This document shows positions 1 through 22,380 of a stretch of 64,000 nucleotides of DNA, one piece after another. Numbering within the stretch: the first letter of the stretch is position 1; each line of letters opens with the position of its first letter. The stretch spans positions 4,663,324 through 4,727,323 of the forward strand of contig NC_133041.1 in NCBI RefSeq assembly GCF_048771995.1, written 5' to 3'. Below the pieces are notes generated by a model. It had not been told where the DNA came from and did no database searches. It saw only the letters and a list, made by a program, of their open reading frames with translations. Position numbers and translations under genes: made by a program. The stretch comes from Taeniopygia guttata. Taxonomy: Eukaryota.

Positions 1-518
1 AACACACCTGGGTGGAGTCAGGGTACACCTGGATTGGGTTAGGGAACACCTGGATACACCTGGGTGGGGTCAGGGCACACCTGGGCACACTTGGAGGGGG
101 TAAAGACACACCTGGAGGGGGTTAGGGCACACCTGGGTGGGGTTGGGGCACACCCGGGTACACCAGGAGGGGGTCAGGGCACACCTGGGTGGGGTAAAGA
201 CACACCTGGGCACACCTGGGTGGGGTTGGGGCACACCTGGATACACCTGGAGGGGGTCAGGGCACACCTGTCCCTAAAATCTGTCCCTAAAATCTCAGGA
301 TTTTTGGGTTGAAATTCTGGATTTTTGGCATTTTTTTACCTGCCCAGGTGCGCCTCACCTGTTGCAGAAGTTCTCACCTGGTTTTGGGCCCTCACCTGTC
401 CCTAAAATCTCAGTATTTTTGGGTTAAAATTCCGGATTTTGGGCATTTTCTCACCTGCCCAGGTGTGCCTCACCTGTCTCACCTGTCCAGGTGTGCCTCA
501 CCTGTCTCACCTGCGCAG

Positions 519-678
519 GTTCGTGTACGCCAAGGACCGCACGGACCGGATCCGCACCTGCGCCATCCTGTGCCACATCTACCACCACGCCCTGCACAGC
601 CGCTGGTACCGCGCCCGCGACCTGATGCTGATGTCGCACCTGCAGGACAACATCCAGCACGCCGACCCACCTGTGCAG
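519..678 (+). CDS. EIF3C: EIF3C internal exon, translating (R)[53 protein letters not shown]; first EIF3C exon inside the window, upstream exons lie before position 1
   Basis: The translation is near-identical to the human eIF3c segment ...[49 protein letters not shown]. The acceptor is cgcag|g at 518/519 and the donor gtgcag|gtgagt at 678/679; the reading frame is continuous with the next exon. Confidence 0.88.
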
Positions 679-679
679 G

Positions 680-1615
680 TGAGTCTGATACACCTGGGCA
701 GGTAAATCACACACCTGGGCAGGTAAATCACACACCTGAGGGGGTTAAACACACCTGCAGGACAACATCCAGCACGCCGACCCACCTGTGCAGGTGAGTC
801 TGATACACCTGAGGGGGTTAAACACACCTGGGCAGGTGAGTCTGATACACCTGGGCAGGTAAATCTGACACACCTGAGGGGGTTAAACACACCTGCAGGA
901 CAACATCCAGCACGCCGACCCACCTGTGCAGGTGAGGGACACACCTGAGGGGGTTAAACACACACCTGAGGGGGTTAAACACACCTGCAGGACAACATCC
1001 AGCACGCCGACCCACCTGTGCAGGTAAAGCACACCTGGGCAGGTGAGTCTGACACACCTGTGCAGGTAAATCACACACCTGAGGGGGTTAAACACACCTG
1101 GGCAGGTGAGTCTGACACACCTGTGCAGGTAAATCACACACCTGAGGGGGTTAAACACACCTGGGCAGGTGAGTCTGACACACCTGGGCAGGTGAGTCTG
1201 ACACACCTGAGGGGGTTAAACACACACCTGGGGGGGTTAAACACACCTGGGCAGGTGAGTCTGACACACCTGAGGGGGTTAAACACACCTGCAGGACAAC
1301 ATCCAGCACGCCGACCCACCTGTGCAGGTGAGTCACACCTGGGCAGGTGAGTCTGACACACCTGAGGGGGTTAAACACACACCTGAGGGGGTTAAACACA
1401 CCTGGGCAGGGAAATCACACACCTGGGGGGGTTAAACACACCTGCAGGACAACATCCAGCACGCCGACCCACCTGTGCAGGTAAAGCACACCTGGGCAGG
1501 TGAGTCTGACACACCTGAGGGGGTTAAACACACCTGGGCAGGGAAATCACACACCTGAGGGGGTTAAACACACCTGCAGGACAACATCCAGCACGCCGAC
1601 CCACCTGAGCCCTAA
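680..1615 (+). repeat. Tandem array (CACCTG-core minisatellite) containing six degenerate copies of the last ~45 nt of the EIF3C exon at 519-678 ([13 protein letters not shown] plus the donor caggtgag)
   Basis: Copies lie at about 752-796, 888-936, 982-1030, 1286-1334, 1437-1487 and 1570-1606. Five keep the GT donor; the last is truncated. Confidence 0.9.
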
Positions 1616-4600
1616 AATTGCCAAAAAAATTTCCAAAAAATGCTAAAAAAAATCCCCCAAAAATGCTAAAAAAAATCCCCCAAAATTGCCAAAAAAATCC
1701 CGCAAATTTTCCAAAAAAATTGCTAAAAAAAAACCCCAAAATTACTAAAAAAATCGCCCAAAATTGCCAAAAAAACGCCCCAAAATTGCTTAAAAAAATG
1801 CCCCAAAATTCCTAAAAAAATCACCCAAGTTTTCCACAAATCACCAAAAATTGCTAAAAAATCACCCAAAAGTTTCCAAAAATCACCCAAAATTTACAAA
1901 AAATCACCCAAAATTTACAAAAATCACCCACTTGTCTCATCTGAGACTCATCTGGGCATCCTCATTTTTTACCCTAAATCCCTCCAAAAATCCCCCTCAA
2001 AACCCCCTAAAATCACCCAAAAATCACTGAAAATTGCCAAAAATCCCCAAAATCCCCAAAACCCCCAAAATCTCCTTTTTTCCCGCAGATCCTGTACAAC
2101 CGCACCATGGTGCAGCTGGGCATCTGCGCCTTCCCTCACCTGTCCCACCTGTCCCAAGAAACCCCCTAAAACCCCCTAAAATCACCCAAAATTGCCAGAA
2201 AAGTCACCAAAAACCGCCTTAAATCACCCAAAATTGCTAAAAAATTCCCCAAAATTGCTAACAAATTTTTCCAAAATTTCTAAAAAAATCCCTCAAAAAT
2301 GCTAAAAATATTCCTAAATTTGCCCCAAAATTCCCCAAAATTGCCAAAAAAAATTCCAAAAATTGCTAAAAAAAACCACCCAGAATTTTCCAAAAATCAC
2401 CCTAAATTGCCAAAAAATCCCCCAAAATTGCCCAAAAAATCCCCCAAAATTTACAAAAAATCACCGAAAATTGTTAAAAAATCAACCAAAAATCACCAAA
2501 AAAATCCCCAAAATCCTCCCAAAATCACCAAAAATCCCCCTCAAAACCCCCAAAATCCCCCAAAAATCCCAAAAATTCCCAAAAACCCCCAAAAACCCCC
2601 CAAAAATCTCCTTTTTTTCCAGATCCTGTACAACCGCACGATGGTGCAGCTGGGCATCTGCGCCTTCCCTCACCTGTCCCACCTGTCCCAAGAAACCCCC
2701 TAAAATCACCCAAAATTGCCAGAAAAATCACCAAAAACCATCTAAAATCACCCAAAATGGCCAAAAAAATCACTAAAAACCACCTAAAATCACCCAAAAT
2801 TGCTAAAAAAATCACCCAAAATTTCAAAAAAAAAAATCCCAAAATTGCCCAAAAAATCCCCCAAAATTGCTAAAAAATCACTCAAAATTGCTAAAAAAAA
2901 ATCACACAAAATTTACAAAAAATCCCCCAAAATTGCTAAAAAATCCCCTAAAATTGCCCAAAAAATCACTCAAAATTGCTATAAAAAATCCCCCAAAATT
3001 GCCCAAAAAATCCCCCAAATTTGCTCAAAAAAATCCCCCAAAATTGCCAAAAAATCACTCAAAATTGCTAAAAAAATCACATAAAATTTACAAAAAATCT
3101 CCCAAAATTGCTAAAAAAATCCCCCCAAAGTGCCATAAAATCACCCAAAATTGCCAAAGAAATCCCTTAAAATAGCTAAAAAATCTCACAAAATTGCCAA
3201 AAAAATTCCCCAAATTTTCAAAAATAATCCCCCAAATTTTCCAAAAATCACCCAGAATCTCTAACAAAATTCCCCCAAAATGCTAAAAAATCCCCAAAAA
3301 TTGCTAAAATAAATCACCCCAAAATTTTTTTTTAAATCCCCCAAAATTGCTTAAAAATCCCAGAAAATTGCTAAAAAAATTCCCCAAAATTGCTAAAAAA
3401 ATTCCCCAAAATTGCTAAAAAAATTCCCCAAAATTGCTAAAAAAAATCACCCGAAATTGCAAAAAAAACCACCCAAAATTGTTTAAAAATCACCCAAAAA
3501 TCACCAAAAAAATCCCCAAAATCCTCCCAAAATCACCAAAAATCACCAAAAAAAACCCCAAAATTCCCAAAATCCCCAAAACTCCCCAAAACCCCAAAAA
3601 TCTCCTTTTTTTTCCCCAGATCCTGTACAACCGCACGATGGTGCAGCTGGGCATCTGCGCCTTCCCTCACCTGTCCCACCTGTCCCAAGAAACCCCCTAA
3701 AGTCACCCAAAATTGCCAAAAAAATCACCAAAAACCATCTAAAATCACCCAAAATGGCCAAAAAAATCACTAAAAACCACCTAAAATCACCCAAAATTGC
3801 TAAAAAAATCACCCAAAATTTAAAAAAAAAAATCCCAAAATTGCCCAAAAAATCCCCCAAAATTGCCAAAAAAATCACCCAAAATTGCTAAAAAAATCAC
3901 CCAAAAATGCTAAAAAATCTTCCCAAAATTGCTAAAAAGAAATCCCTTCAAAATAGCTGAAAAATCCCCTAAATTTGCCCCAAAAATCCCCCAAAATTGC
4001 CAAAAAAATCACCCAAAATTGCTAACAAAATTCCCCAAAATTGCTAAAAGAATTCCCCAAAATTGCTGAAAAATCACCCAAATTTGCTCAAAAAAATCCC
4101 CCAGAATTTTGCAAAAATCACCAAAATTGCCAATAAAATCACCCAAAATTGCCAAAAATCACCTACATTTTCCAAAAATCACCCACCTGTCCCACTTGGG
4201 ACTCACCTGGGCACCTCAAATCCTCATTTTTTACCCTAAATCCCCCTAAAAATCCATCAAAAATCTCCCTCAAAACCCTCTAAAATTCCCCCAAAGCCCC
4301 TTAAAATCACTGAAAATTGCCAAAAATCACCAAAAACCCCCAAAAATCTCCCTTTTATCCCCAGATCCTGTACAACCGCACGATGGTGCAGCTGGGCATC
4401 TGCGCCTTCCCTCACCTGTCCCAAGAAACCCCCTAAAACCCCCTAAAATCACCCAAAATTGCCAGAAAAATCACCCAAAATTGCTAATAAAATTCCCCAA
4501 AATTGCTAAAAAAATCACCCAAATTTGCCAAAAAAATTCTTCAAAAATGCAAAAAAAATTCCCAAAAAATGTTTAAAAAATTCCCCAAAATTGCTAAAAA

Positions 4601-6475
4601 AATCACCCAAGATGTACAAAAAATGACTCGAAATTGCCAAAAAATACCCCAAATATTGCCAAAAAAATTGCCCAAAAATTCCCCAAAATTGCTTAAAAAT
4701 CCCTCAAAATTGCGAAAATAAATCCCCCAAAAATGCTAAAAAACCCCCCCAAAATGCTAAAAAAATCCCCTAAAATTGCAAAAAAAATCACCCAAAATTG
4801 CCAAAAAAAGCACCCAAAATTACTAAAAAATTTCCCAAAAATGCTAAAAATTCCCTTTAATTTGCCCCAAAAATCAGCCAAAATTGCCAAAGAAGTCCCT
4901 CAAAAATGCTAAAAAAATCCCCCAAAATTGCCATAAAATCCCCCAAAATTTTCCAAAAATCCCCCAAAATTGCCAAAAAAATCCCCCAAAAATCCCCAAA
5001 AACCCCCCAAAATCCCCAAAAATCCCAAAAAATCTCCTTTTTCCCAGCTCCTGTACAACCGCACGATGGTGCAGCTGGGCATCTGCGCCTTCCCTCACCT
5101 GTCCCAAGAAACCCCCTAAAATCACCCAAAATTCCCAAAAAAATCCCCCAAAATTGCTAAAAAAATCCCCCAAAATTGCCATAAAATCTCCCAAAATTGC
5201 TAAAAAATCCCGCAAAGCTGCTAAAAAAATCACCCAAAATTACCCAAAATATCCCCCAAAATTTACAAAAAACTACCCAAAAATGCTGAAAAATCCCCCA
5301 AAATTGCTAAAAAGAAATCCTCTCAAAATAGCTGAAAAATCCCCTAAATTTGCCCCAAAAATCCCCCAAAATTGCTCAAAAAATCCCCCAAAATTTCTTT
5401 AAAAATCCCTCAAAAATGCTAAAAAATGACCCAAAAATCCCCCCTAATTTACAAAAAATCACCCAAAATTGCTATAAATATTCCCTAAAATTGCTAAAAA
5501 AATCACTCAAAAGTCCCATAAAATCACCCAAAATTGCCAAAAATCACCCACATTTTCCAAAAATCACCCAAAATTGCTAAAAAAATCCCCCAAAATTGCC
5601 AAAAAAATTCCCAAAAATGCTAAAAATATCCCCCAAAATTTACAAAAAATTCCCAAAAATTGCCAAAAAATTACCAAAAAAATTCCCAAAATTCCCCAAA
5701 ATCCCAAAAAAAACCCCCAAAATCTCCAAAACTTTTTTTTTTGCAGATCCTGTACAACCGCACGATGGTGCAGCTGGGCATCTGCGCCTTCCCTCACCTG
5801 TCCCAAGAAACCCCTGAAAACCCCCTAAAATCACCCAAAATTGCCAGAAAAGTCACCAAAAACCATCTAAAATCACCTAAAATTGCCAAAAAAATTACAA
5901 AAAACCGCCTTAAATCACCCAAAATTGCTAAAAAAATCACCCAAAATTTCAAAAAAAAAATCCCAAAATTGCCAAAAAAATCCCCCAAATTTGCCCCAAA
6001 AAATCCCCCAAAATGCTAAAAAATCTCACTAAATTGCCAAAAAACTTCCTAAAATTCCTAAAAAATCCCACAAAATTGCTAAAGAAATCCCCCAAAAATG
6101 ATAAAAAAGTCACCCAGAATTTTCCAAAAATCACCCAAAATTGCCAAAAAAATCCCCCAAAATTGCTAAAAGAATCACCCAGAATGTTCCAAAAATCACC
6201 CAAAATTGCCAAAAAAAATCCCAAAAAATGCTAAAAAATATTCGAAGTTGCTAAAAAAACATCAAAATTGCCATAAAATCACCCAAAATTGCCCAAAAAC
6301 TCACCCAAAATTGCCAAAAAAATTCAACTAAATTGCCAAAAAAATCCCCCAAAATTTACAAAAAATCCCCCAAAAATCACCCAAAATTGTTAAAAAATCA
6401 CCCAAAAATCACAAAAAAACACCCCAAAATTCCCAAAACCCCCAAAAAACCCAAAAACCCCTTTTTTCTCCCCAG
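1616..6475 (+). repeat. 4.8-kb A-rich microsatellite-like array (ccaaaattgccaaaaaaatcacc variants) organised as ~0.7-kb higher-order units, each carrying a copy of the first ~50 nt of the next EIF3C exon with its acceptor (cag|ATCCTGTACAACCGCACGATGGTGCAGCTGGGCATCTGCGCCTTCC)
   Basis: Pseudo-exon copies lie at about 2089, 2623, 3619, 4364, 5048 (an atc-to-ctc variant) and 5747. The real exon starts at 6476. After gccttcc, every copy diverges to ctcacctgtccc. Confidence 0.9.
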
Positions 6476-6839
6476 ATCCTGTACAACCGCACGATGGTGC
6501 AGCTGGGCATCTGCGCCTTCCGGCAGGGGCTGATCAAGGACGCGCACAACGCGCTGCTGGACATCCAGAGCTCCGGCCGGGCCAAGGAGCTGCTGGGCCA
6601 AGGTCTTCTCCTGCGCAGCCTCCAGGAGCGCAACGCCGAGCAGGAGAAGGTGGAGAAGCGCCGCCAGGTGCCCTTCCACATGCACGTCAACCTGGAGCTC
6701 CTCGAGTGCGTCTACCTGGTGGCCGCCATGCTGCTGGAGATCCCCTACATGGCGGCGCACGAGTTCGACGCGCGCCGCCGCATGATCAGCAAGCAGTTCC
6801 ACCACCAGCTGCGCGTGGGCGAGAGGCAGCCGCTGCTGG
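6476..6839 (+). CDS. EIF3C: EIF3C exon, translating [122 protein letters not shown]
   Basis: About 95% identity to the PCI-domain region of human eIF3c. The acceptor is ccccag|atc and the donor ctgctgg|gtgagg, leaving phase 1 to join the next exon. Confidence 0.9.
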
Positions 6840-6849
6840 GTGAGGGGCA

Positions 6850-8930
6850 GATTTAGGAATTTTTATCCAAAATTGGGTTCTTGAGGTCCATAATTACCTC
6901 AGTTCGGTCTTGGTTTGGTTTTTCTATCACTTAAAATGGCAGTTGTAGATCTTCTTGAGGTTCCTCAGACCATTTGTGGCATTTTACCAGATTTGGAGGT
7001 TTTGGGATGAAATTTTGTGTTCTTGAGGTCCATAATTATCTTGATTTGGTCTTGGTTTGGTTTTTCTACCCCTTAAAATGGCGGTTCTAGATCTTCTTGA
7101 GGTTCCTCAGACCGTGCTTAGAGATTTTGACCAAAATTTTGGGATTTTGACCCAGAATTGGGTTCTTCAGGTCCATAATTACCTTAATTCAGCCTTGGTT
7201 TTGTTTTTCTATTTCTTAAAATGGCGGTTCTAGATCTTCATGAGGTTCCTCAGACTGTGCTTAGAGATTTTGACCAAAATTTCGGGATTTTGACTCAAAA
7301 TTGGGTTCTTGAGGTCCATAATTACCTTAATTTGGCTTTACTTTGGTTTTTGTATCACTTAAAATGGCCGTTCTAGATCTTCATTAGGTTCCTCAAACCA
7401 TGGTTGGTGGTTTTTGAACATAATTGGAAGTTTTAGGTTGAAATTTTGGGGTTTTGGGGTCAAAAGTTGGGTTTGGAGGTCCATAATTATCTTAATTCGG
7501 TCTTGGTTTGGTTTATCTATCTCTTAAAATGGCGATTCTAGATCTTCTTGAGGTTCCTCAGACTGTGCTTAGAGATTTTGACCAAAATTTCAGGATTTTG
7601 ACTCAAAATTGGGCTCTTGAGGTCCATAATTACCTTAATTCAGTTTTAGTTTGGTTTTTTTATCACTTAAAATGGCGGTTCTAGATCTTCTTGAGGTTTC
7701 TCAGACAAAAATTGAGTTTTTTCACCGAAGTCTAGGAATTTTGACCCAAAATTGGGTTCTTGAGGCCCATAATTACCTTTATTTGGTCTTGGTTTGGTTT
7801 TTCTATCTCTTAAAATGGCGGGTCTAGATCTTCATAAAGTTCCTCAAATCATGTCTGGTGGCTTTGACCAGAGTTTGTTGATTTTGACCCAAAATTGGGT
7901 TCATCAGGTCCATAATTACTTAATTTGGTCTTGGTTTGGTTTTTGTATCACTTAAAATGAAGATTTTAGATCTTCTTGAGGTTCTTCACACCATGGTTGG
8001 TGGTTTTTACCAAAATTTTGGGATTTTGACCCAGAATTGGGTTCTTCAGGTCCATAATTACTTAATTTGGTCTTGGTTTCGTTTTTCTATCTCTTAAAAT
8101 CGCGGTTCCAGACCTTCATGAGGTTCCTCAGACCATGGTGTGGGATTTTGACCAAAATTTTGGGATTTTGACCCAGAATTGGGTTCTTGAGGTCCATAAT
8201 TACTTTGATTTGGTCTTGGTTTGGTTTTTTTATCTCTAAAAATGAAGATTCTAGATCTTCCTGAGGTTCCTCAGACAATGGTTGGGGATTTTGACCAAAA
8301 TTTCAGGATTTTGATCCAGAATTGGGTTCTTGAGGTCCATAATTATCCTAATTCAGCTTTAGTTACCTTTTTTAGCCCTTAAAATGGCGGTTCTAGATCT
8401 TCATTATGTTCCTCAGACCATTTGTGGTATTTTACCAAATTTGGAGGTCTTAGCTTGAAATTTTGGGGTCTTGAGGTCCATAATTACCTTAATTCAGTTT
8501 TAGTTTGTTTTTTTTTATCACTTAAAATGGCGGTTCTAGATCTTCCTGAGGTTCCTCAGACCGTGATTTGAGATTTTGACAAAAATTTAGGAATTTTTAT
8601 CTAAAATTGGGTTCTTGAGGTCCATAATTATCCTAATTCAGCTTTAGTTACCTTTTTTAGCCCTTAAAATGGCGGTTCTAGATCTTCCTTAGGTTCCTCA
8701 GACCATTTGTGGTATTTTACCAGATTTGGAGGTTTTGGGATGAAATTTTGGGTTCTTGAGGTCCATAATTACTTAATTTGGTCTTGGTTTGGTTTTTTTA
8801 TCTCTTAAAATGAAGATTCTAGATCTTCCTTAGGTTCCTCAGACCATGGTTTGGGATTTTGACCAAAATTTCGGGATTTTGACCCAGAATTGGGTTCTTC
8901 AGCTCCATAATTACCTTAATTCGGCTTTAC
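6850..8930 (+). repeat. About 15 tandem copies of a ~140-bp AT-richer satellite (core ...gttcttgaggtccataattaccttaattcagtcttggtttggtttttctatcacttaaaatggcggttctagatcttcttgaggttcctcagacc...gattttgaccaaaattt.gggattttgacccagaattgg) in an EIF3C intron
   Basis: ggtccataatta recurs about every 135-150 bp from 6886 to 8905. Copies are 85-95% identical. Confidence 0.9.
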
Positions 8931-9171
8931 TTCTGTTTTTTACCCCAAAAATTCCCATTTTTTTGCCCAAAATCACCATTTTTCACCCCAAAACTGCCAA
9001 TTTTTTACTCCAACCTGTCTCAGGTGCTTTTCTGACCTCCAAAATCCAAAAAAAATCCCATTTTTTTGCCCCAAAACCACTGATTTTTTGGGATTTTTTT
9101 TTATTTCCCGTCCCCTCACCTGCCCCAGTGTCCCTCACCTGTCCCAGGTGTGTCTCACCTGTCCCCCCCAG

Positions 9172-9331
9172 GTCCCCCCGAGTCGATGCGGGAGCACGTG
9201 GTGGCCGCCTCCAAGGCCATGAAAACGGGCGACTGGCGGCGCTGCCATCGCTTCGTGGTCAATGAGAAGATGAACGGAAAGGTCTGGGACCTGTTCCCCG
9301 AGGCCGACCAGGTGCGCGCCATGCTGGTCAG
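9172..9331 (+). CDS. EIF3C: EIF3C exon, translating (G)[53 protein letters not shown]
   Basis: Matches human [53 protein letters not shown]. The acceptor is cccccag|gt and the donor gtcag|gtgagc. Confidence 0.9.
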
Positions 9332-9339
9332 GTGAGCAC

Positions 9340-10600
9340 ACCAAAATTTGGGGGGTTTTGGGAAAATTTGGGCGAAATTTGGGCGATTTTTGGCCATTTT
9401 TTGGTGATTTTATAGTGATTTTTGGGGGGTTTTTAGGGGCATTAAAGGGTTAAAAATGAGGGTTTGAGGTGCTCAGGTGAGTCTCAGGTGAGCCTCAGGT
9501 GAGTCAGGTGAGTCCCACCTGGGCCAATTAAAAATTTTGGGGGATTTTGGGAAATTTTGGGCGAATTTTGGCAATTTTGAGCAATTTTACGGTGATTTTT
9601 TAGAGATTTTCGGGGGTTTTTGGGGAGGATTTTCGGCAGGAAATGAGGATTTAAAGTGATCAGGTGTGTCTCAGGTGAGTCTCACCTGGGCAGGTGTGGC
9701 CAGGTTAAAAAAAACTGTGAATTTTGGGGGATTTTGGGCAATTTTGGGTGAATATTGCCAATTTCGGATAATTTTTGGCATTTTTAAGTGATTTTTGGGG
9801 GTTTTGGGGTGATTTTGGCCGTTTTGGGGGGATTTGGGGAGGTTCAAAGTCTGGGACCTGTTCCCCGAGGCCGACCAGGTGCGCGCCATGCTGGTCAGGT
9901 GAGCGACCCCAAATTTTGGGGGGTTTTGGGAAAATTTGGGCGAAATTTCGGCGATTTTTGGCCATTTTTGGGCGATTTTATAGCGATTTTTAGGGGTTTT
10001 TTTGGGGCGTTAAGGGTTAAAAATGAGGATTTGAGGTGCTCAGGTGAGTCTCAGGTGAGCACACCTGGACACAGGTGAAAAAATTTAGGGGGAATTTTCA
10101 GGGATTTTGGGCAATTTTGGGCAAATTTTGGCCATTTTTGGGTGATTTTAGAGGGATTTTAGAGGGATTTTTGGGGGTTTTTGGGGAGATTTACGGTTAA
10201 AAATGAGGATTTGAGGTGCTCAGGTGAGTCTCAGGTGAGTCTCAGGTGAGCACACCTGGACACAGGTGAAAAATTTTTGGGGTAAATTTGGGCAAATTTT
10301 GGCAATTTTGGGTGAATTTTCGGCAATTTTGAGCGATTTTAGGGCGGTTTTATGGGGATTTTCGGGGTTTTTTGGGAGATTTAGGGTTAAAAATGAGGAT
10401 TTGAGGTGCTCAGGTGAGTCTCAGCTGAGTCTCACCTGGGCAGGTGTGGCCAGGTAAAGAAAAACGTGAATTTCGGGGAATTTTGGGCGAATTTTGGCAA
10501 TTTTGGGTGATTTTAGGGGGATTTTAAGAGAATTTGGGGTAAAAAATGTGGATTTGAGGTGCCCAGGTGCACCCAGGTGTGCCCAGGTAAGGAAATTTAG
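9340..10600 (+). repeat. Intronic array of ~250-bp units ending in gtgctcaggtgagtctcaggtgagc; one unit (9848-9898) contains a copy of the 3' end of the EIF3C exon at 9172-9331 with its donor
   Basis: gtctgggacctgttccccgaggccgaccaggtgcgcgccatgctggtcag|gtgagcg at 9848-9898 duplicates 9281-9338. Confidence 0.85.
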
Positions 10601-11330
10601 CCAATTTTGGAATATTTTGGGATATTTTGGGACATTTTGGGGCAGGAAATGAGAATTTGGGGGGTCAGGGGCGTGCCCAGGTGTGCCCAGGTGTGCCCAG
10701 CTGCCCCCAGGTGTGCCCAGCTGCCCCCAGGTGTGCCCAGGTGTGCCCCAGGTACCCTCAGGTGTGCCCAGGTGTATCCCAGGTGTGCCCAGGTGTATCT
10801 CAGGTGTATCTCAGGTGTGCCCAGGTGTGCCCAGGTGTGCCCAGGTGCCCCAGGTGTGCCCAGGTGTGCCCAGGTGTGCCAGGTGTGCCAAGGTGGCCCC
10901 AGGTGTATCTCAGGTGTGCCCAGGTGTGCCCAGGTGTGCCCAGGTGCCCCAGGTGTGCCCAGATGTGCCCAGGTGTGCCCAGGTGTGCCCAGGTGTATCT
11001 CAGGTGGTGCCCAGGTGTGCCCAGGTGTGCCCAGGTGTGCCCAGGTGTATCTCAGGTGTGCCCAGCTGTGCCCAGGTGTGCCCCAGGTGTGCCCAGGTGT
11101 GCCCAGGTGTGCCCAGGTGTATCCCAGGTACCCCCAGGTGTGCCCAGGTGTATCTCAGGTGCCCCCAGGTGCCCCCAGGTGCCCCCAGGTGCCCCCAGGT
11201 GCCCCCAGGTGTGCCCAGGTGTATCTCAGGTGTGCCCAGGTGTGCCCAGGTGTGCCCAGGTGCCCCCAGGTGTGCCCAGGTGTATCCCAGGTGTGCCCAG
11301 GTGTGCCAGCTGTGCCCTCTGTGCCCGCAG
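10600..11330 (+). repeat. Array of about 80 copies of (CCCAGGTGTG) with a CAGGTG E-box core, ending at the acceptor of the EIF3C exon at 11331
   Basis: The period is 9-10 bp. All three forward reading frames are open (ORFs 10607-11536, 10627-11454 and 10683-11489). Confidence 0.9.
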
Positions 11331-11396
11331 GAAGATCCAGGAGGAATCTCTCCGCACGTACCTGTTCACCTACAGCAGCGTCTACGACTCCATCAG
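11331..11396 (+). CDS. EIF3C: EIF3C exon, translating (R)[21 protein letters not shown](S)
   Basis: Identical to human [22 protein letters not shown]. The acceptor is cccgcag|g and the donor catcag|gtcc. Confidence 0.88.
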
Positions 11397-11399
11397 GTC

Positions 11400-12840
11400 C
11401 GTTTTTTGGGGGGAAAAATGGGGATTTTGGGTCAAAAAAAAGAAAAAAAAATAATTTTTGGGGTGAAAAATGGGGATTTTGGAGTTTAAAAAAAAATATT
11501 AATTTTGGGGTAAAAAAAAAGCTTATTTGGGGGTAAAAAATGGGAATTTTGGGGTATAAAAAGCGGGTTTGGGGGTAAAAAAAAGTGAATTTTGGGGTAA
11601 AAAATTTGAATTCGGACGGGAAAAATTGGTGAGTTTTGGGGTTAAAAATGTAAATTTTCAGGTAAAAAATGGAGGAGTTAAAAGGGAAAAATTGGTGAAT
11701 TTTAGGGTAAAAAAATAATTTTGGGGTATAAAAAGTGGGTTTGGGGGCAAATAAAACTGAATTTTCGGGTAAAAATGTGAATTCTGAACGGAAAAATTGG
11801 TGAATTTAGAAGGGAAAAATTGGTGATTTGGGGTAAAAAATGGATTTTGGGGTGAAAAATGGGAATTTTGGGGTAAAAAAACCTGGATTTTGGGGTAAAA
11901 AATGTGAATTTTGGGGTAAAAAAGGGTGATTTGGGGTAAAAAAAAAAGCGAATTTTGGGGTAAAAAATGTGAATTTTGGGGTAAAAAAGTGTATTTGGGT
12001 ATAAAAAAAAGTTAATTTTGGGTAAAAAATAGCGGCTTTACAAGGCAAAAATTGGTGAATTTTGGGGTTAAAAAAATGTGAATTTTGGGCTAAAAAATGT
12101 GAATTTTGGGGTAAAAAGGGGTGAATTTAGAAGGGAAAAATTAGTGAATTTTGGGGTAAAAAAATGTGAATTTTGGGGTAAAAAGGGGTGAATTTAGAAG
12201 GGGAAAATTAGTGAATTTTGGGGTAAGAAACAGCTATTTTAGAAGAAAAAAACTAGTGAATTTTGGGGTAAAAAATATAAATTTTGGGGTAAATAAGAGT
12301 GGATTTAAAAGGGGAAAGTTGGTGAATTTTGGGGTAAGAAATGTGAACTTTGGGGTAAAAACTAGCGATTTTAGAAGGGAAAAATTGGTGAATTTTGGGG
12401 TAAAAAATCATAAATTTTGGGGTAAAAAAATAATTTTAGGGTACAAAAAAAGTTGATTTTGGGGTAAAAATGAATTTTTCGGGTAAAAAATAGCAGATTT
12501 AAAAGGCAAAAATTGGTGAATTTTGGGGTAAAAAAATGTGAATTTTGGCATAAAAAGGGGTGAATTTATAAGGGAAAAATTGGTGAATTTTGGGGTAAAA
12601 AGGGGTGAATTTAGAAGGGAAAAATTTGTGGATTTTGGGTAAAAAATATTAATTTTGGGGTAAAAAATGTGAATTTTTGGGTAAAAAATAGGAATTTTGG
12701 GGTAAAAAAATAATGAATTTTGGGGTAAAAAGGGGTGAATTTAGAAGGGAAAAATTAGTGAATTTTGGGGTAAAAAAACCACAAATTTTGGGGTAAGAAA
12801 TACTTTGGGTGTAAGAGGGCCGGATTTTGGGTTGAAAAAG
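11400..12840 (+). repeat. A/G-rich minisatellite (ggggtaaaaaatgtgaattttggggtaaaaagggg..)
   Basis: A simple tandem repeat, seen directly. Confidence 0.85.
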
Positions 12841-12859
12841 GGGGATTTTGGGCCGGCAG

Positions 12860-12947
12860 CATGGAGACGCTGGCGGCCATGTTCGAGCTGGACCTGCCGA
12901 CGGTGCACGGCATCATCAGCAAGATGATCATCAACGAGGAGCTGATG
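12860..12947 (+). CDS. EIF3C: EIF3C exon, translating (S)[29 protein letters not shown]
   Basis: Matches human [30 protein letters not shown]. The acceptor is ggcag|c and the donor gatg|gtgagc. Confidence 0.88.
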
Positions 12948-12949
12948 GT

Positions 12950-15300
12950 GAGCGCCTTTTGGGGCAAATTCCGGCCGGTTTGGGTCAAAAGGGAAATTTG
13001 GGGGATTTGGGGTCATTTCCGGCTCGGTTTGGGTCACCCGCGGGCAAATTCGGGGCAGTTTTGGGGCAGTTTTGGTGTTTTGGGGTCAAATTTGGGAACA
13101 GGTTGGGTGATTTTGGGTCAGATTTGGGGCAGTTTTGGGGTCAATTTTGGGGTCAGATTGGGTGATTTTGGGGCAGTTTTGGGGTCAATTTTGGTGATTT
13201 TGGGTCAAATTTGGGTTCTAATTGTGTGATTTTGGGACAGTTTTGGGGCAGTTTTGGGGTCAATTTTGGTGATTTTGGGTCAAATTTGGGTTCTAATTGT
13301 GTGATTTTGGGACAGATTTGGGATCAGGTTGGGTGATTTTGGTTCAAATTTTGGGTCAGATTGTGTCAAATCTTGGGTTTAATTTGGGGGAGTTTTGGGT
13401 CATTTGGGCTCATTTTGGGTCATTTTGGGTCACTTGGGGTCAATTTGGGTGATTTGGGGTCAAATTTGGGGCCGTTTTGGGGTCAATTTTGGTGATTTTG
13501 GGTCAAATTTGGGGCAGTTTTGGGGTTAATTTTGATGATCTTGGGTCAAATTTGGGGTCAGGTTGGGTGATTTTGGGGCAGATTTGGGGCGGGTTTTGGG
13601 TCAAATTTGGGGTCAGATTGGGTGATTTTGGGTCAGTTTTGGGGAAGTTTTGGGGTAAATTTTGGTGATTTTGGGGCAGTTTTGGAATCAATTTTGGTGG
13701 TTTTGGGTCAAATTTGGGGCAGTTTTTGGTGTAAATTTTGGTGATTTTGGGTCAATTTTGGGAACAATTTGGGTGATTTTGGGTCAGATTTGGGGCAGTT
13801 TTTGCGTCAATTTTGGTGATTTTGGGTCAGATTTGGGATGAGGTTGGGTGATTTTGGGTCAAATTTTAGGGGTTTAGATTGGGTCAAATCTTGGGTTTAA
13901 TTTTGGGGAGTTTTGGGTTATTTGGGCTCAATTTGGGGAGTTTAGGGTCACTTGGGGTGAATTTGGGTGATTTGGGGTCACATTTGGGGCAGTTTTGGGG
14001 TCAATTTTGGTGATTTTGGGTCAGATTTGGGGCAGTTTTGGGGTCAATTTTGGTGATTTTGGGACAGATTTGGGGCAGTTTTTGGGTCAATTTTGGTGAT
14101 TTTGGGTCAGATTTGGGAACAGGTTGGGTTATTTTGGGGCAGATTTGGGGCAGTTTTTGGGTCAAATTTGGGGTCAGATTGGGTGATTTTGGGTCAGATT
14201 TGGGGCAGTTTTGAGGTCAATTTTGGTGATTTTGGGTCAAATTTGGGGTGGTGTTGGGAGATTTTGGGACAGATTTGGGGTCAATTTTGGGGTCAATTTT
14301 GGTGATTTTGGGTCAAATTTGGGGCAGTTTTGGGGTTAATTTTGATGATCTTGGGTCAAATTTGGGGTCTGGTTGGGTGATTTTGGGTCAGATTTAGGGC
14401 GGTTTTGGGTCAATTTTGGGGATTTTGGGTCAAATTTGGGGCAGTTTTGGGATCAATTTTGGTGATTTTGGGTCAAATTTGGGGTCTGGTTGGGTGATTT
14501 TGGGTCAAATTTGGGGTCAGGTTGGGTGATTTTGGGGCAGTTTTGGGGTCAATTTTAGGGTCAATTTTGGTGATTTTCGGTTAAATTTGGGGCAGTTTTT
14601 GGGTCAATTTTGGTGATTTTGGGTCAGATTTGGGGTCAGATTGGGTGATTTTGGGTCAGATTTGGGGTCAGATTGGGTCAAATCTTGGGTTTAATTTCGG
14701 GGAGTTTTGGGGCATTTGGGCTCATTTTGGGGAGTTTTGGGTTACTTGGGGTGAATTTGGGTGATTTGGGGTCAATTTAGGGCGGTTTTGGGGCAAATTT
14801 GGGGCAGTTTGGGTGATTTTGGGGCAGATTTGAGGCAGTTTTGGGGTCAGTTTATGTGATTTTGGGTCAAATTTGGGGTCTGGTTGGGTGATTTTGGGTC
14901 AGATTTGGGGCCATTTTGGGGTCAATTTTGGTGATTTTGGGTCAAATTTGGGGTCAGGTTGGGTGATTTTGGGTCAAATTTGGGAACAAGTTGGGTGATT
15001 TATGTCAAATTTGGGGTCAGATTGGGTGATTTTGAGTCAAATTTGGGGCAGTTTTTGGGTCAAATCTGGGGTCAGATTGGGTCAAATCTTGGGTTAAATT
15101 TTGGGGAGTTTTGGGTCACTTGGGGTCAATTTGGGTGATTTGGGGTCACATTTGGGGCAGTTTTGGGGTCAATTTCAGTGATTTTGGGTCAAATTTGGGT
15201 CACTTGAAATTTGGGCTCAATTTGGGTCATTTTGGGGTCGGTTTGGGTGATTTTGGGGCAGATTTGGGGCAGTTTTGGTGGGATTTCAGGTGGGGTTTTG
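12950..15300 (+). repeat. G/T-rich minisatellite (ttttgggtcagatttggggcagttttggggtcaattttggtga)
   Basis: A simple tandem repeat, seen directly. Confidence 0.85.
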
Positions 15301-16413
15301 GGGGTTACCTGCAGCACAGGTGAGTCACCTGTGACCCCGTTTGGGGCCATTTTGGGGTGATTTTGGTCGGGTTTGGGGCAATTTTGGGCAGTTTTGGGGC
15401 AATCTCAGGTGGGTTTTCAGGGGTTACCTGCAGGACAGGTGAGCCTCACCTGGGCCCACTTTAGACCTCACTGGATGAGCCCAAGGTCACCACGATGATG
15501 GGGTGACCCCATTTGGGGCCATTTTGGGGTGATTTTGGGCAGGTTTGGGGTGATTTTTGGTAGTTTTGGGGTGATTTCGGGTGGGTTTTTGGGGGTTACC
15601 TGCAGGACAGGTGAGTCTCACCTGGGCCCACTTTAGACCTCACTGGATGAGCCCAAGGTCACCATGATGGTGGGGTGACCCCATTTGGGGCCATTTTGGG
15701 GTGATTTTGGGCAGTTTTGGGGCGATTTTGGGTGGGTTTTTGGGGGGGTTACCTGCAGGACAGGTGAGTCTCACCTGGGCACACCTGCAGGCCTCGCTGG
15801 ACCAGCCCACGGCCACGGTGATGATGGGGTGACCCCGTTTGTGGCCATTTTGGGGTGATTTTGGGCAGTTTTGGGGTGATTTTGGATGGGTTTTTGGGGC
15901 GGTTACCTGCAGGACAGGTGAGTCTCACCTGGGCACACCTGCAGGCCTCGCTGGACCAGCCCACAGCCACGGTGATTGTGGGTTGACCCCATTTGATGCC
16001 ATTTTGGGGTGATTTTGAGCAGGTTTGGGGCAGTTTTGGGGTGATTTCGGGTGGGTTTTTGGGGGTTACCTGCAGGACAGGTGAGCCTCACCTGGGCCCA
16101 CTTAAGACCTCACTGGATGAGCCCAAGGCCACCATGATGATGGGGTGACCCCGTTTGGGGCCATTTTGGGGTGATTTTGGGCAGTTTTGGGACGATTTTG
16201 GGTGGGTTTTTGGGGGGTTACCTGCAGGACAGGTGAGTCTCACCTGGGCACACCTGCAGGCCTCGCTGGACCAGCCCACAGCCACGGTGATGATGGGGTG
16301 ACCCCGTTTGGGGCCATTTTGGGGTTATTTTGGGCAGTTTTGGAGCGATTTCGGGTGGGTTTTTGGGGGGGTTACCTGCAGGACAGGTGAGTCTCACCTG
16401 GGCACACCTGCAG
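15300..16413 (+). repeat. About seven tandem ~120-bp units, each containing a copy of the acceptor and first ~45 nt of the EIF3C exon at 16414 (cacctgcag|GCCTCGCTGGACCAGCCCACGGCCACGGTGATGATG..)
   Basis: Close copies lie at about 15783, 15939 and 16250. Diverged copies (..ctcactggatgagcccaaggtcaccacgatgatgggg) lie at about 15461, 15630 and 16100. Confidence 0.88.
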
Positions 16414-16576
16414 GCCTCGCTGGACCAGCCCACGGCCACGGTGATGATGCACCGGACGGAGCCGACGGCCACGCAGAACCTGGCGCTGCAGCTGGCCGAG
16501 AAGTTGGGCAACCTGGTGGAGAACAACGAGCGGGTGCTGGACCAGCGGCAGGGCGCCTACGGGGGGTACTTCAGAG
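16414..16576 (+). CDS. EIF3C: EIF3C exon, translating [54 protein letters not shown](D)
   Basis: Matches human [55 protein letters not shown]. The acceptor is cacctgcag|gcc and the donor ttcagag|gtgagc. Confidence 0.88.
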
Positions 16577-16744
16577 GTGAGCACACCTGGGCACACCTGG
16601 GCACACCTGGGGGCACCTGGGAGGGAGAGAACAAAAAAAACCCGGTGGAAATGGGGTGAAAAATGGGGATTTTGGGGGGTTTTTGGGTTACCTGGGCACA
16701 CCTGAGCCCTGCCCCGTTCTCACCTGTCCCATCTTGTCCTGCAG

Positions 16745-16824
16745 ACCAGAAAGATGGCGGATACCGCAAAGGTGACGGGTACCTGCGGCGGGGCGGCTTC
16801 CGGCAGGAGCGCGGCAACTACTGA
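16745..16824 (+). CDS. EIF3C: EIF3C terminal coding exon, translating (D)QKDGYRKGDGYLRRGGFRQERGNY followed by a stop
   Basis: Matches the human eIF3c C-terminus [26 protein letters not shown]. The acceptor is tcctgcag|ac and the stop codon TGA is at 16822-16824. Confidence 0.85.
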
Positions 16825-16838
16825 CCCACACCTGCCCC

Positions 16839-17335
16839 ATGGATCCTTACCTGCCCCATAGATCCCTTACCTGCCCCATGGATCCTCACCTGTTCTACAA
16901 ATTCACTCACCTGGGCAAAAAGTCATCACCTGCCCCATGGACCCCTCACCTGCCCCATGGACCCCTCACCTGCCCCATAGATCCCTTACCTGCCCCATGG
17001 ATCCTCACCTGCCCCATAGATTCCTCACCTGCCCTATGGATTCCTCACCTGCCCCATAGATCCCTCACCTGCCCCATGGATCCCTTACCTGCCCCATAGA
17101 TCCCTCACCTGCCCCATAGATCCCTTACCTGCCCCATAGATCCCTTACCTGCCCCATAGATCCTCACCTGTTCTACAAATTCACTCACCTGGGCAAAAAG
17201 TCATCACCTGCCCCACGGACCCCTCACCTGCCCCATAGATCCCTTACCTGCCCCATAGATCCTTCACCTGCCCCATGGATTCCCTCACCTGCCCCATAGA
17301 TCCCTCACATGCCCCATAGATCCTCACCTGTTCCA
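16839..17335 (+). repeat. Minisatellite of ~21 bp (cacctgccccatagatccctt) in the EIF3C 3' flank or UTR
   Basis: It starts 15 bp after the EIF3C stop. ORF 16839-17099 there is repeat-encoded. Confidence 0.85.
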
Positions 17336-20569: not shown

Positions 20570-22380
20570 CACAAGTGGGGGGCGGGACCCATAGAGACAG
20601 CCCTGACCCATAGACAGACCCATAGACAGACCCACAAGTGGGGGGCAGGACCCATAGAGACAGCCCTGCCCCATAGAGAGCCCTGCCCCATAGACAGAGC
20701 CCTGACCCATAGATGGAGCCTGACCCATAGACAGACCCATAGACAGACCCACAAGTGGGGGGCGGGCCCCATAGAGAGCCTGACCCATAGACAGACCCAT
20801 AGAGAGAGCTGTGACCCATAGACAGACCCAGAGACAGACCCATAGATGGAGCCCTGACCCATAGACAGACCCATAGATGGAGCCCTGCCCAATAGACAGA
20901 GCCCTGCCCCAGAGACAGACCCAGAGACAGACCCACAAGTGGGGGGCAGCACCCCATAGACAGAGCCCTGACCCATAGAGAAACTCCATTTCCCCCCATT
21001 TCCCCCAATTTCTCCCCATTTTATTCCCCCCATTTCCCCCAAAATTTCTCCCCATTTCCCCCATTTTTTTTACGTTTTCCCCAATTTTTTCCCAAATTTT
21101 CCCCAATTTTTCCCTATTTCCTCCCCTTTTTTTTCAAATTTCCCCCAATTTTCCCCATTTTCCCCCATTTTCCCCCATTTCCCCCCCATTTCCCACCCAT
21201 TTTCCCCCATTTTTTTTACTTTTTTCCCAATTTTTCCCCATTTCCCCCAATTCTTTTCAATTTTTTCCCAATTTTTCCCAATTTTACCCAATTTTCCCCA
21301 TTTTCCCCCATTCCCCCCATTTTCCTGCCCATTCCCCCCCATTTTCCCCCCATTTCCCCCCATTTTATCCCCATTTTCCCCCCTTTTTTTTCAATTTTTC
21401 CCAATATTTTCCCAATTTCCCCCCATTTCTCCCCATTTCCCCCCATTTTCTCCTTTTCCCCCCATTTCTCCCCATTTCTCCCCATTTTACTCAATTTTTT
21501 CTCATTTTTCCCCATTTTTCCCCATTTTCCCCATTTTTCCCCATTTTTCCCCATTTTTCCCCCATTCCCCCAATTTCCCCCCATTTCCCCCCATTTTTTC
21601 CTATTTTTTCCCAATTTTTCCCCCATTTCCCCCAATTTCCCCCCATTTCCCCCCATTTTCTCCCCAATTTCCCCCCATTTCCCCCAACTTTATCCCCATT
21701 TTTCCACATTTTCCCCCATTTTCTCCATTTTTCCCCCTTTTTTTTTCCATTTTTCCCTATTTTCCCCCATTTCCCCCCATTTTTCCCCATATCTTCCCAT
21801 TTTATCCCAATTTTGCCCCATTTTTTCCCAATTTTCCCCCATTTCCCCTATTTTTTTTCTATTTTTTTTCAATTTTTTTTCAATTTTTTCCCAATTATCC
21901 CCAATTTTTTCCCATTTCCCCCATTTTTTCCCCATTTTTCCCTATTTCCCCCCTTTTTTTTCAATTTTTCCCAATATTTTCCCAATTTCCCCCCATTCCC
22001 CCCATTTTTTTCCCAATTCCCCCCATTTTCTCCCCATTTCCCCCCATTTTCCCCTTTTTATCTCCATTTTCCCCCATTTCCCCCATTTTCCTCCATTTTT
22101 TCCTAATTTTTTCCCAATTTCCCCCCAATTTTCACCATTTCCCCCCATTTTATCCCCATTCTTCCTCATTTTTTCCCCATTTCCCCCATTTTTCCCAATT
22201 TTCCCCCTTTTTCCCCCATTTCCCCCCATTTCTCCCCATTTTCTCCCCAATTTCCCCCAATTTTTTTCGTTTTTTTTTCCCGATTTTCCCGATTTTCCCC
22301 CATTTTATCCCCATTTTACCCATTTTCCCCATTTTTTTTCAATTTTTTCTCATTTTTCCCCATTTCCCCCAATTTCCCCC
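20570..22380 (+). repeat. Two adjoining intronic arrays: gacccatagacagacc units (20570-20990), then ccccatttcccccaatttt units (20990-22380)
   Basis: Seen directly. Confidence 0.85.

Follow-up and report, generated by a model that had tools for sequence, protein, structure and literature searches.

Sequence stuttering of avian introns has been described in the chicken, where Hron et al. (2026, Genome Biol Evol, PMC12954441; preprint September 2025) reported it for the introns of dot chromosomes. In the form named exon stuttering, an outer portion of an exon, along with its splice site, is repeated in tandem along the neighboring intron. The screen in that report recovered 236 introns distributed over 115 genes. 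In more than 90% of cases the source was located no more than 1 nt from an exon border; the copied exon stretches measured 20-187 bp (median 36) with a median of 4 copies, and the introns were rich in simple repeats. PHF8 intron 18 served as the worked example, the chicken phenomenon was checked with raw nanopore reads, extensive within-species polymorphism of intron length was noted, and expansions in related species were inferred to be recent and species-independent. The retrieved passages of two preprints on the zebra finch (bioRxiv 10.1101/2025.10.14.682431 and 10.1101/2025.10.17.683159) describe dot-chromosome introns as more than 70% tandem repeat, with units in multiples of 10-11 bp and G-quadruplex (G4) motifs on the coding strand, and the minisatellites of these chromosomes as hard to assemble and affected by coverage dropout. 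Here we analyze 64,000 nt of Taeniopygia guttata DNA (GCF_048771995.1, NC_133041.1, positions 4,663,324 to 4,727,323 of the forward strand; hereafter the window), which carries the 3' half of EIF3C. Exon stuttering is already known and chicken EIF3C (chr38:191080-288434) is listed among its published examples; the copies of the exon F edge that we describe upstream of that exon very probably represent the same avian phenomenon, a local tandem array that took in an intron-exon junction.

The tandem array upstream of exon F

The EIF3C portion of the window comprises the last seven coding exons (A to G, + strand), mapped from the spliced open reading frame (ORF). The source of the copies is exon F (16414-16576, phase 0), the ASLDQP exon, which ends in GGYFR. 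This exon is intact despite the neighboring array. Joined exons A-G give a clean 359-aa ORF whose product matches the EIF3C-like protein of the wrentit Chamaea fasciata with 100% identity. The junctions 12947|16414 and 16576|16745 are located exactly by three RNA-seq contigs assembled from another passerine, at 93-98% nucleotide identity. The intervening intron E-F (12948-16413, + strand, phase 0) is G/T-rich minisatellite throughout, with 17 G4 motifs on the coding strand and 0 on the opposite strand. Tandem Repeats Finder (TRF) reported 11-bp TTTGGGG-type sub-repeats in this intron and tandem arrays that span 14000-16449.

The array itself occupies 15304-16449 and consists of eight head-to-tail units of 119-172 bp, typically ~154 bp, for which TRF gave periods of 154 bp (5.9 copies) and 469 bp (2.3 copies). 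Each unit begins at the anchor GTTACCTGCAG, found at 15304, 15423, 15595, 15748, 15902, 16065, 16217 and 16371. Three parts can be distinguished within a unit: H, a 33-nt palindromic module (GTTACCTGCAGGACAGGTGAGTCTCACCTGGGC); X, formed by the intron end (~10-11 nt, AG included) and 36 nt of exon F; and T, a G-rich tail of 73-93 nt built from 10-11-bp TTTTGGGG-type sub-repeats. An earlier note on this DNA had described ~120-bp units carrying 45 nt of the exon. The units with an exon piece in fact measure 152-172 bp, and only the first unit, which has none, is as short as 119 bp; the 45-mer combines 9 nt of intron with 36 nt of exon (16414-16449). The copied segment thus spans the border, from at least 43 nt upstream of the acceptor to exon position +36. 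Homology with the real site stops at 16449 (...GATGATG|C), where the copies go on as GGGTGACCCC, and all six copies end at +36 and enter the same tail sequence.

All six copies lie upstream of exon F on the + strand, and they fall into two classes, which we call old and young by their divergence from the exon head. The first unit, U0 (15304-15422, 119 bp), has H and a G-rich tail without an exon segment (H-model match, E = 5e-7) and is either the repeat as it was before the capture or a product of deletion. U1 (15423-15594, 172 bp) is an old copy with the acceptor-like sequence CCCACTTTAG and an exon-like stretch at 15465-15500 that matches the exon head at 27/36 positions. The other two old copies are U2 (15595-15747, 153 bp; exon-like 36 nt at 15637-15672) and U5 (16065-16216, 152 bp; exon-like 36 nt at 16107-16142, 29/36 against the exon head). 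The young copies are U3 (15748-15901, 154 bp; exon copy 15791-15826), whose first 79 nt are 100% identical to the real site, U4 (15902-16064, 163 bp; exon copy 15945-15980, 3 mismatches) and U6 (16217-16370, 154 bp; exon copy 16260-16295, 1 mismatch, at a CpG). The array terminates in the real unit, U7 (16371-16449), in which H is followed by the authentic 3' splice site (CAG, 16411-16413) and then by 36 nt from the start of exon F. The real 3' splice site is straddled (16375-16414, + strand) by a nested inverted repeat, CCTGCAGG...CAGGTGAG-T-CTCACCTG...CCTGCAGG, which is present in every young unit, while old units retain its inner stem only.

The earlier note had placed seven copies, the real one included, at these sites, and both their number and their resemblance to the exon beyond chance were confirmed. 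A hidden Markov model (HMM) of X returned exactly seven matches in the 64 kb (E <= 3e-14), the next match having E = 2.6. The 45-mer CACCTGCAG|GCCTCG...GATGATG occurs at 15782, 15936, 16251 and 16405 with 0, 3, 1 and 0 mismatches, respectively, where shuffles are expected to give 0 such matches. The three diverged copies, at 27-29/36 against the exon head, exceed the best null value, 22/36 among ~128,000 windows, and 0/5000 shuffles reached the observed score; the separation into two divergence classes is therefore confirmed. An origin as transposon or retrocopy was considered and rejected, since the copies include intron sequence, run head to tail on one strand and, according to the HMM, occur nowhere else in the window.

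Along the array the classes follow the order old, old, young, young, old, young, real, so that they do interleave as had been claimed. The claim that interleaving signals repeated rounds was not sustained, because it is explained by a single duplication of three units. When the array is compared with itself, identity is highest at a shift of three units (446/480, 93%), compared with 85% at one and 83% at two, which makes the array a higher-order repeat with two copies of a ~469-bp block (15502-15981 and 15982-16449, + strand). The units differ from one another by 5-24%, and the closest pairs, U2 with U5 (95.4%) and U3 with U6 (94.8%), are likewise three units apart. On the shift identity and this pairing, the last event was a ~469-bp duplication of old, young and real head, and under that model U4 is the counterpart of the real unit. 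Such a duplication turns old-old-young-real into old-old-young-young-old-young-real and therefore produces only an apparent interleaving.

Copies in other species and exchange with the exon

Homologous arrays are present in two other oscines, with six copies 5' of exon F in Zonotrichia leucophrys and four in Haemorhous mexicanus. These copies have the same +36 breakpoint as those of the window and a homologous junction, GATGATG|G[G/A]GA[G/A]... ...ATGGGGCCATTTTGGGG, which varies at few bases between species and classes. Because breakpoint and junction are common to all copies in the three species, the exon edge was most likely captured a single time, before the three oscines split. The earlier note had favored repeated rounds of duplication or gene conversion over one event; a multi-step history that includes conversion stands, and fresh duplications of the exon do not, given the one breakpoint and junction. 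That note had also regarded the diverged class as older, and the comparison bears this out. In each of the three species the old copies have C>A at exon position 20 and GG>CA at positions 27-28, derived states that place the origin of the old class before the three-species split. The old copies of Zonotrichia and Haemorhous have two further changes in common. Most of the old-class changes run from GC to AT, as expected of neutral decay in a copy of a GC-rich exon. In its acceptor, CCCAC-TTTAG, the old class of the window resembles CCCACCTTCAG, which is still in use in Zonotrichia, and does not resemble CACACCTGCAG, the real acceptor of the window.

The difference between old and young units is confined to the 47-nt X, and the flanks have been homogenised. 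Between the classes, X differs at 12-14/47 positions, whereas H differs at only 0-1/33 and T at 2-7/74 (Fisher p = 1e-4 and 8e-4), and the flank differences (H and T) between old and young units are no greater than those between young units. H and the acceptor are species-specific, uniform within each species, and match that species' own real acceptor. In Haemorhous, the old copies agree with their own real exon over H, the acceptor and the first 19 nt, and the 3' half remains old; this looks like a conversion tract that ends within X. The young copies, and the H and T flanks of old and young copies alike, agree with the real acceptor and exon of their own species. This is concerted evolution, through gene conversion or unequal exchange, in which the selected exon serves as the stable partner.

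Independent support for such exchange comes from exon C. The earlier note had reported a copy of its donor edge, and this copy is real (9849-9898, 50 nt, 100% identity). It has the same upstream junction in Zonotrichia (~4703-4753), GGATTTGGGGAGGTTCAA|GT. In the window, both exon C and its copy read GTC...CTGGTCAG; in Zonotrichia, both read GTT...CTCGTCAG (synonymous GTC/CTG versus GTT/CTC). The synonymous differences between the species thus recur in each species' own copy, which is direct evidence for gene conversion between exon C and its intronic copy after speciation and contrasts with the published inference of independent repeat expansion in related species. Chamaea has a shorter exon C copy (21330-21356) that matches its own donor flank.

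The quail Coturnix japonica provides an outside comparison. Two copies of the exon F edge (12080 and 12886; real exon at 13672) have a breakpoint at +46 and are embedded in a satellite different from that of the oscines, with a period of ~800 bp. Since breakpoint, satellite and period all differ, the same exon edge was captured independently in Galliformes. The exon C acceptor edge (GPPESMREH) is likewise copied in the quail, at 4020 and 4462, and is counted as a further independent capture in Galliformes.

Several observations weigh against this account. Shared junctions could in principle stem from a sequence-specific hotspot and not from common descent. Chamaea is about as distant from the window as the other oscines (4-fold site divergence 0.19-0.24; 0.22 from window to Chamaea and 0.19 to Zonotrichia) and has no recognisable young copies. 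Its intron E-F satellite gives a local score of 30 against the old class, which is marginal given that shuffles reach 24, and this alignment depends on the generic CTCACCTG motif. The apparent nesting among old copies, which joins Zonotrichia with Haemorhous against the window, comes from the copies themselves. Copy number and exact order in the window could be imprecise or polymorphic, as they come from a single assembly haplotype. The contigs of Bucco and Pseudopodoces are N-rich and end before exon F, and are thus uninformative on the array.

A sequence of events compatible with these results can be proposed. The intron would already have contained a repeat upstream of exon F, made of the 33-nt palindromic H and the G-rich T. 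One duplication or template switch, from 36 nt within exon F back to the start of the tail, would then have created the unit, composed of T, H, the acceptor and the 36 exon nucleotides. The TG that the exon (...GATGATG) shares with the 3' end of H (...CACCTG) may have served as microhomology in this founding switch. Turnover within the array followed, with the old class decaying and the other copies homogenised with their own exon, and the ~469-bp three-unit duplication was the final step. Candidates for the underlying process are replication slippage and template switching, as well as unequal exchange, between sister chromatids or in meiosis, with short conversion tracts; the array presumably has no function of its own. 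Candidate triggers are the G4-forming tail and the hairpin formed by the nested inverted repeat across the splice site, an idea that agrees with the speculation of Hron et al. (PMC12954441). The hairpin is predicted to fold as DNA at -13.3 kcal/mol; its 55-nt core has z = -2.5, a stability that 3/200 shuffles match, and a whole unit reaches only -1.8. These modest values count against the proposal, and the hairpin as driver is suggestive and not a main argument.

Decoy splice sites and alternative explanations

The array leaves six decoy 3' splice sites in front of exon F. Each decoy acceptor is in frame and opens 13 codons followed by TGA at codon 14 (one form being TSLDEPKVTTMMG*), and a consensus CAG|GTGAG[T/C] donor lies 126-146 nt downstream of each. 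Judged by these motifs, each unit is formally a complete pseudo-exon with a premature stop. Use of a decoy would therefore introduce the premature stop, and the transcript would be expected to be degraded by nonsense-mediated decay. The gap from the donor of a unit to the next acceptor is just 27 nt. Recursive splice sites are defined by a 3' splice site abutting a regenerated 5' splice site (AG|GTRAGT), a polypyrimidine tract and RNA evidence of stepwise removal; in the array, the motif GACAG|GTGAG[T/C] occurs in every unit, and the tract upstream of it is G-rich. U3 equals the real site over 79 nt (-43 to +36) and U6 differs at one exon position, neither with a change next to the 3' splice site, so that local splice-site scoring cannot separate either from the real acceptor. 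Discrimination between decoy and real site must come from sequence beyond +36. The pseudo-donor might form a stem with CTCACCTG that masks it in the RNA. The three assembled transcripts from the related passerine contain the canonical junction only.

The octamer CTCACCTG is the reverse complement of the donor consensus CAGGTGAG and occurs 86 times in the window against 1.3 expected; 75/86 occurrences lie within EIF3C, concentrated in 354-17330. On the + strand it stands just 5' of acceptors and is branch-point-like (CTCAC). CAGGTGAG stands 3' of donors, and the two octamers often pair as short palindromes.

Of the explanations that depart from a single captured edge with subsequent exchange, mis-assembly of a low-complexity, G4-rich region, by which units were created or inflated, is hardly credible. 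Such minisatellites are hard to assemble, according to the zebra finch passages cited above, and the Haemorhous record, with upstream EIF3C exons seemingly missing and a frameshift in exon F, shows that these assemblies can err. The window units are, however, non-identical, with differences of 5-24% in a structured pattern, homologous arrays with the same junction occur in two independently assembled species, and stuttering in the chicken was confirmed by raw nanopore reads (PMC12954441). It is also quite unlikely that the real exon edge was duplicated repeatedly and independently, with the older copies decaying. The two divergence classes and the 79/79 identity of U3 with the real site would suit that history, and the quail indicates that the same edge can be captured independently. 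Independent captures should nevertheless differ, and both classes in three species share one +36 breakpoint and tail. The flanks of old units are no older than those of young units, and in Zonotrichia it is the old copies that adjoin exon F, with the young ones farther away, whereas stepwise addition at the exon would give the opposite order.

A selected role for the copies is highly improbable, whether they were to tune EIF3C output through decoy or poison pseudo-exons or to act as ratchets in recursive splicing and so help to remove a satellite-filled intron. Young units do combine a branch-point-like CTCAC, an AG in the context of the real site and the consensus donor 126-146 nt on; their exon-derived parts are much nearer to the exon than the surrounding satellite is, and the array persists across species. 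Gene conversion accounts for the exon likeness, however. Copy number, order and class content vary by species, Chamaea is without recognisable copies, and the reading frame past the junction is unconserved, with an immediate TGA in the window and none in Zonotrichia. The old copies decay in a neutral, AT-biased pattern, and the three assembled passerine transcripts are canonical. A bolder and doubtful extension of the single-capture account is that the copies form a pool of near-perfect splice modules, long-lived across oscine families and kept in register with the exon by recurrent conversion. If this were true, the copies could take part in RNA processing, whether by acting as pseudo-exons of the decoy or poison kind or by serving as ratchets in the recursive splicing of satellite-filled introns, and reverse conversion, from a decayed copy into the exon, could link stuttering to the accelerated protein evolution and gene loss of dot chromosomes.

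The EIF3C locus and comparison with known systems

The remaining coding exons of the window, all on the + strand, are exon A (519-678), exon B (6476-6839, an uninterrupted 364 nt), exon C (9172-9331), exon D (11331-11396), exon E (12860-12947) and exon G (16745-16824), which is the last coding exon and has the stop codon at its end. A human EIF3C sequence served as a tblastn probe only; the exon map was re-derived from the sequence and checked on database proteins and transcripts. The ORF includes the domains eIF-3c_N, PCI and EIF3CL_C. At the DNA level, the window and the Chamaea contig are only ~85% identical. In Chamaea, a 5.3-kb, AT-rich (27.5% GC) GT...AG intron (10180-15481 of its contig) interrupts the gene at ...SLQ|ERN..., a site that lies within one unbroken 364-nt exon in the window (exon B), Bucco capensis and Pseudopodoces humilis. 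This intron is a candidate for lineage-specific gain, for an insertion or for an assembly artefact.

One base past the EIF3C stop codon, a 20-bp satellite (CCCTCACCTGCCCCATAGAT) begins that TRF resolved into 25 copies (16825-17330). The EIF3C 3' untranslated region is itself a tandem array, and the passerine transcripts run into homologous repeat. The ORF listing of 17.5-64 kb contained repeat-derived ORFs only, and alignment of the downstream Chamaea contig to the window gave chiefly satellite matches. Synteny with PRODH was observed in the neighborhood of the gene.

The window appears to be a dot-chromosome-type region in which introns are mostly G4-rich minisatellite, because chicken EIF3C is on chr38, the Haemorhous ortholog is on a 778-kb record alongside SGF29, CLN3 and PRODH, and the composition and repeat content of the window fit such a setting. 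The indirectness of this assignment, from chicken chr38, the Haemorhous record and composition, is a further point against the interpretation as a dot-chromosome phenomenon. In that Haemorhous record (CM050261.1, 1-12196; 778 kb), only ~2.5 kb separate the end of CLN3 from the exon F array downstream of it, a search for the preceding EIF3C exons gave none, and exon F seems frameshifted; the record is probably a collapsed or misjoined assembly of a stuttered gene.

Other exon edges of EIF3C are stuttered as well. A BLAST screen of the six complete introns, requiring at least 20 nt of exon, detected copies in 3/6, where the earlier note had counted five of seven. Four exon edges were involved: the exon A donor (42 nt, six copies), the exon B acceptor (46 nt, six copies), the exon C donor (50 nt, one copy) and the exon F acceptor (36 nt). 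Within intron A-B (752-1607 and 2089-5792), the exon A copies (its last 42 nt plus donor) and the exon B copies (its first 46 nt plus acceptor), six of each, are nearly all 100% identical to the exons, yet they stand 0.1-1 kb apart in a strongly diverged C/A-rich satellite. Zonotrichia has a copy of at least 138 nt from the 3' end of exon B (328-465 and 1807-1959) and two copies of the exon E donor edge (8852-8923 and 9716-9775). As these have no counterpart in the window, the set of stuttered edges varies between species.

What the locus adds is a songbird case in an essential housekeeping gene, for a phenomenon previously described only in 2025-26, only in the chicken, and as recent and species-specific. 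It further adds a probably single, ancient capture with species-shared variants, explicit gene conversion between exon and copy, a three-unit duplication and, by comparison, an independent capture in quail; it indicates that a captured exon edge can outlast speciation and that copies exchange sequence with the functional exon. The locus also offers a system for studying how cells splice correctly past six near-identical decoy acceptors and whether conversion from decayed copies endangers dot-chromosome exons. For annotation it is a hazard, as gene models may choose a decoy edge.

Compared with chicken exon stuttering, the array shows the same tandem exon-edge copies with splice site in the adjacent intron, the same untouched exon and a source at the border; the 36-nt exon part equals the chicken median, there are six copies where the chicken median is 4, the intron is saturated with simple repeats, and more than one intron of EIF3C is affected. 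It differs in its songbird host, in a junction and one copy class common to three oscines, and in the demonstrable conversion between exon and copy. It has the repeat-dominated introns, 10-11-bp multiples and coding-strand G4 of the zebra finch dot-chromosome minisatellites, for which the retrieved passages describe repeats and non-B DNA and leave exon-edge capture unmentioned. Like the higher-order repeats of alpha satellite and ribosomal DNA, the array is closer at the multi-unit than at the single-unit period (93% versus 85%) and is homogenised in a species-specific manner; unlike them, it is tiny, with eight units, and its terminal unit is anchored in a selected exon that acts as a fixed conversion 'master'. 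Finally, each unit resembles pseudo-exons, decoy sites, poison exons and recursive sites in having a 3' and a consensus 5' splice site whose predicted inclusion adds a premature stop. In contrast to functional pseudo-exons and recursive sites, the sites described here are known from the DNA sequence and would have arisen as a by-product of duplication.

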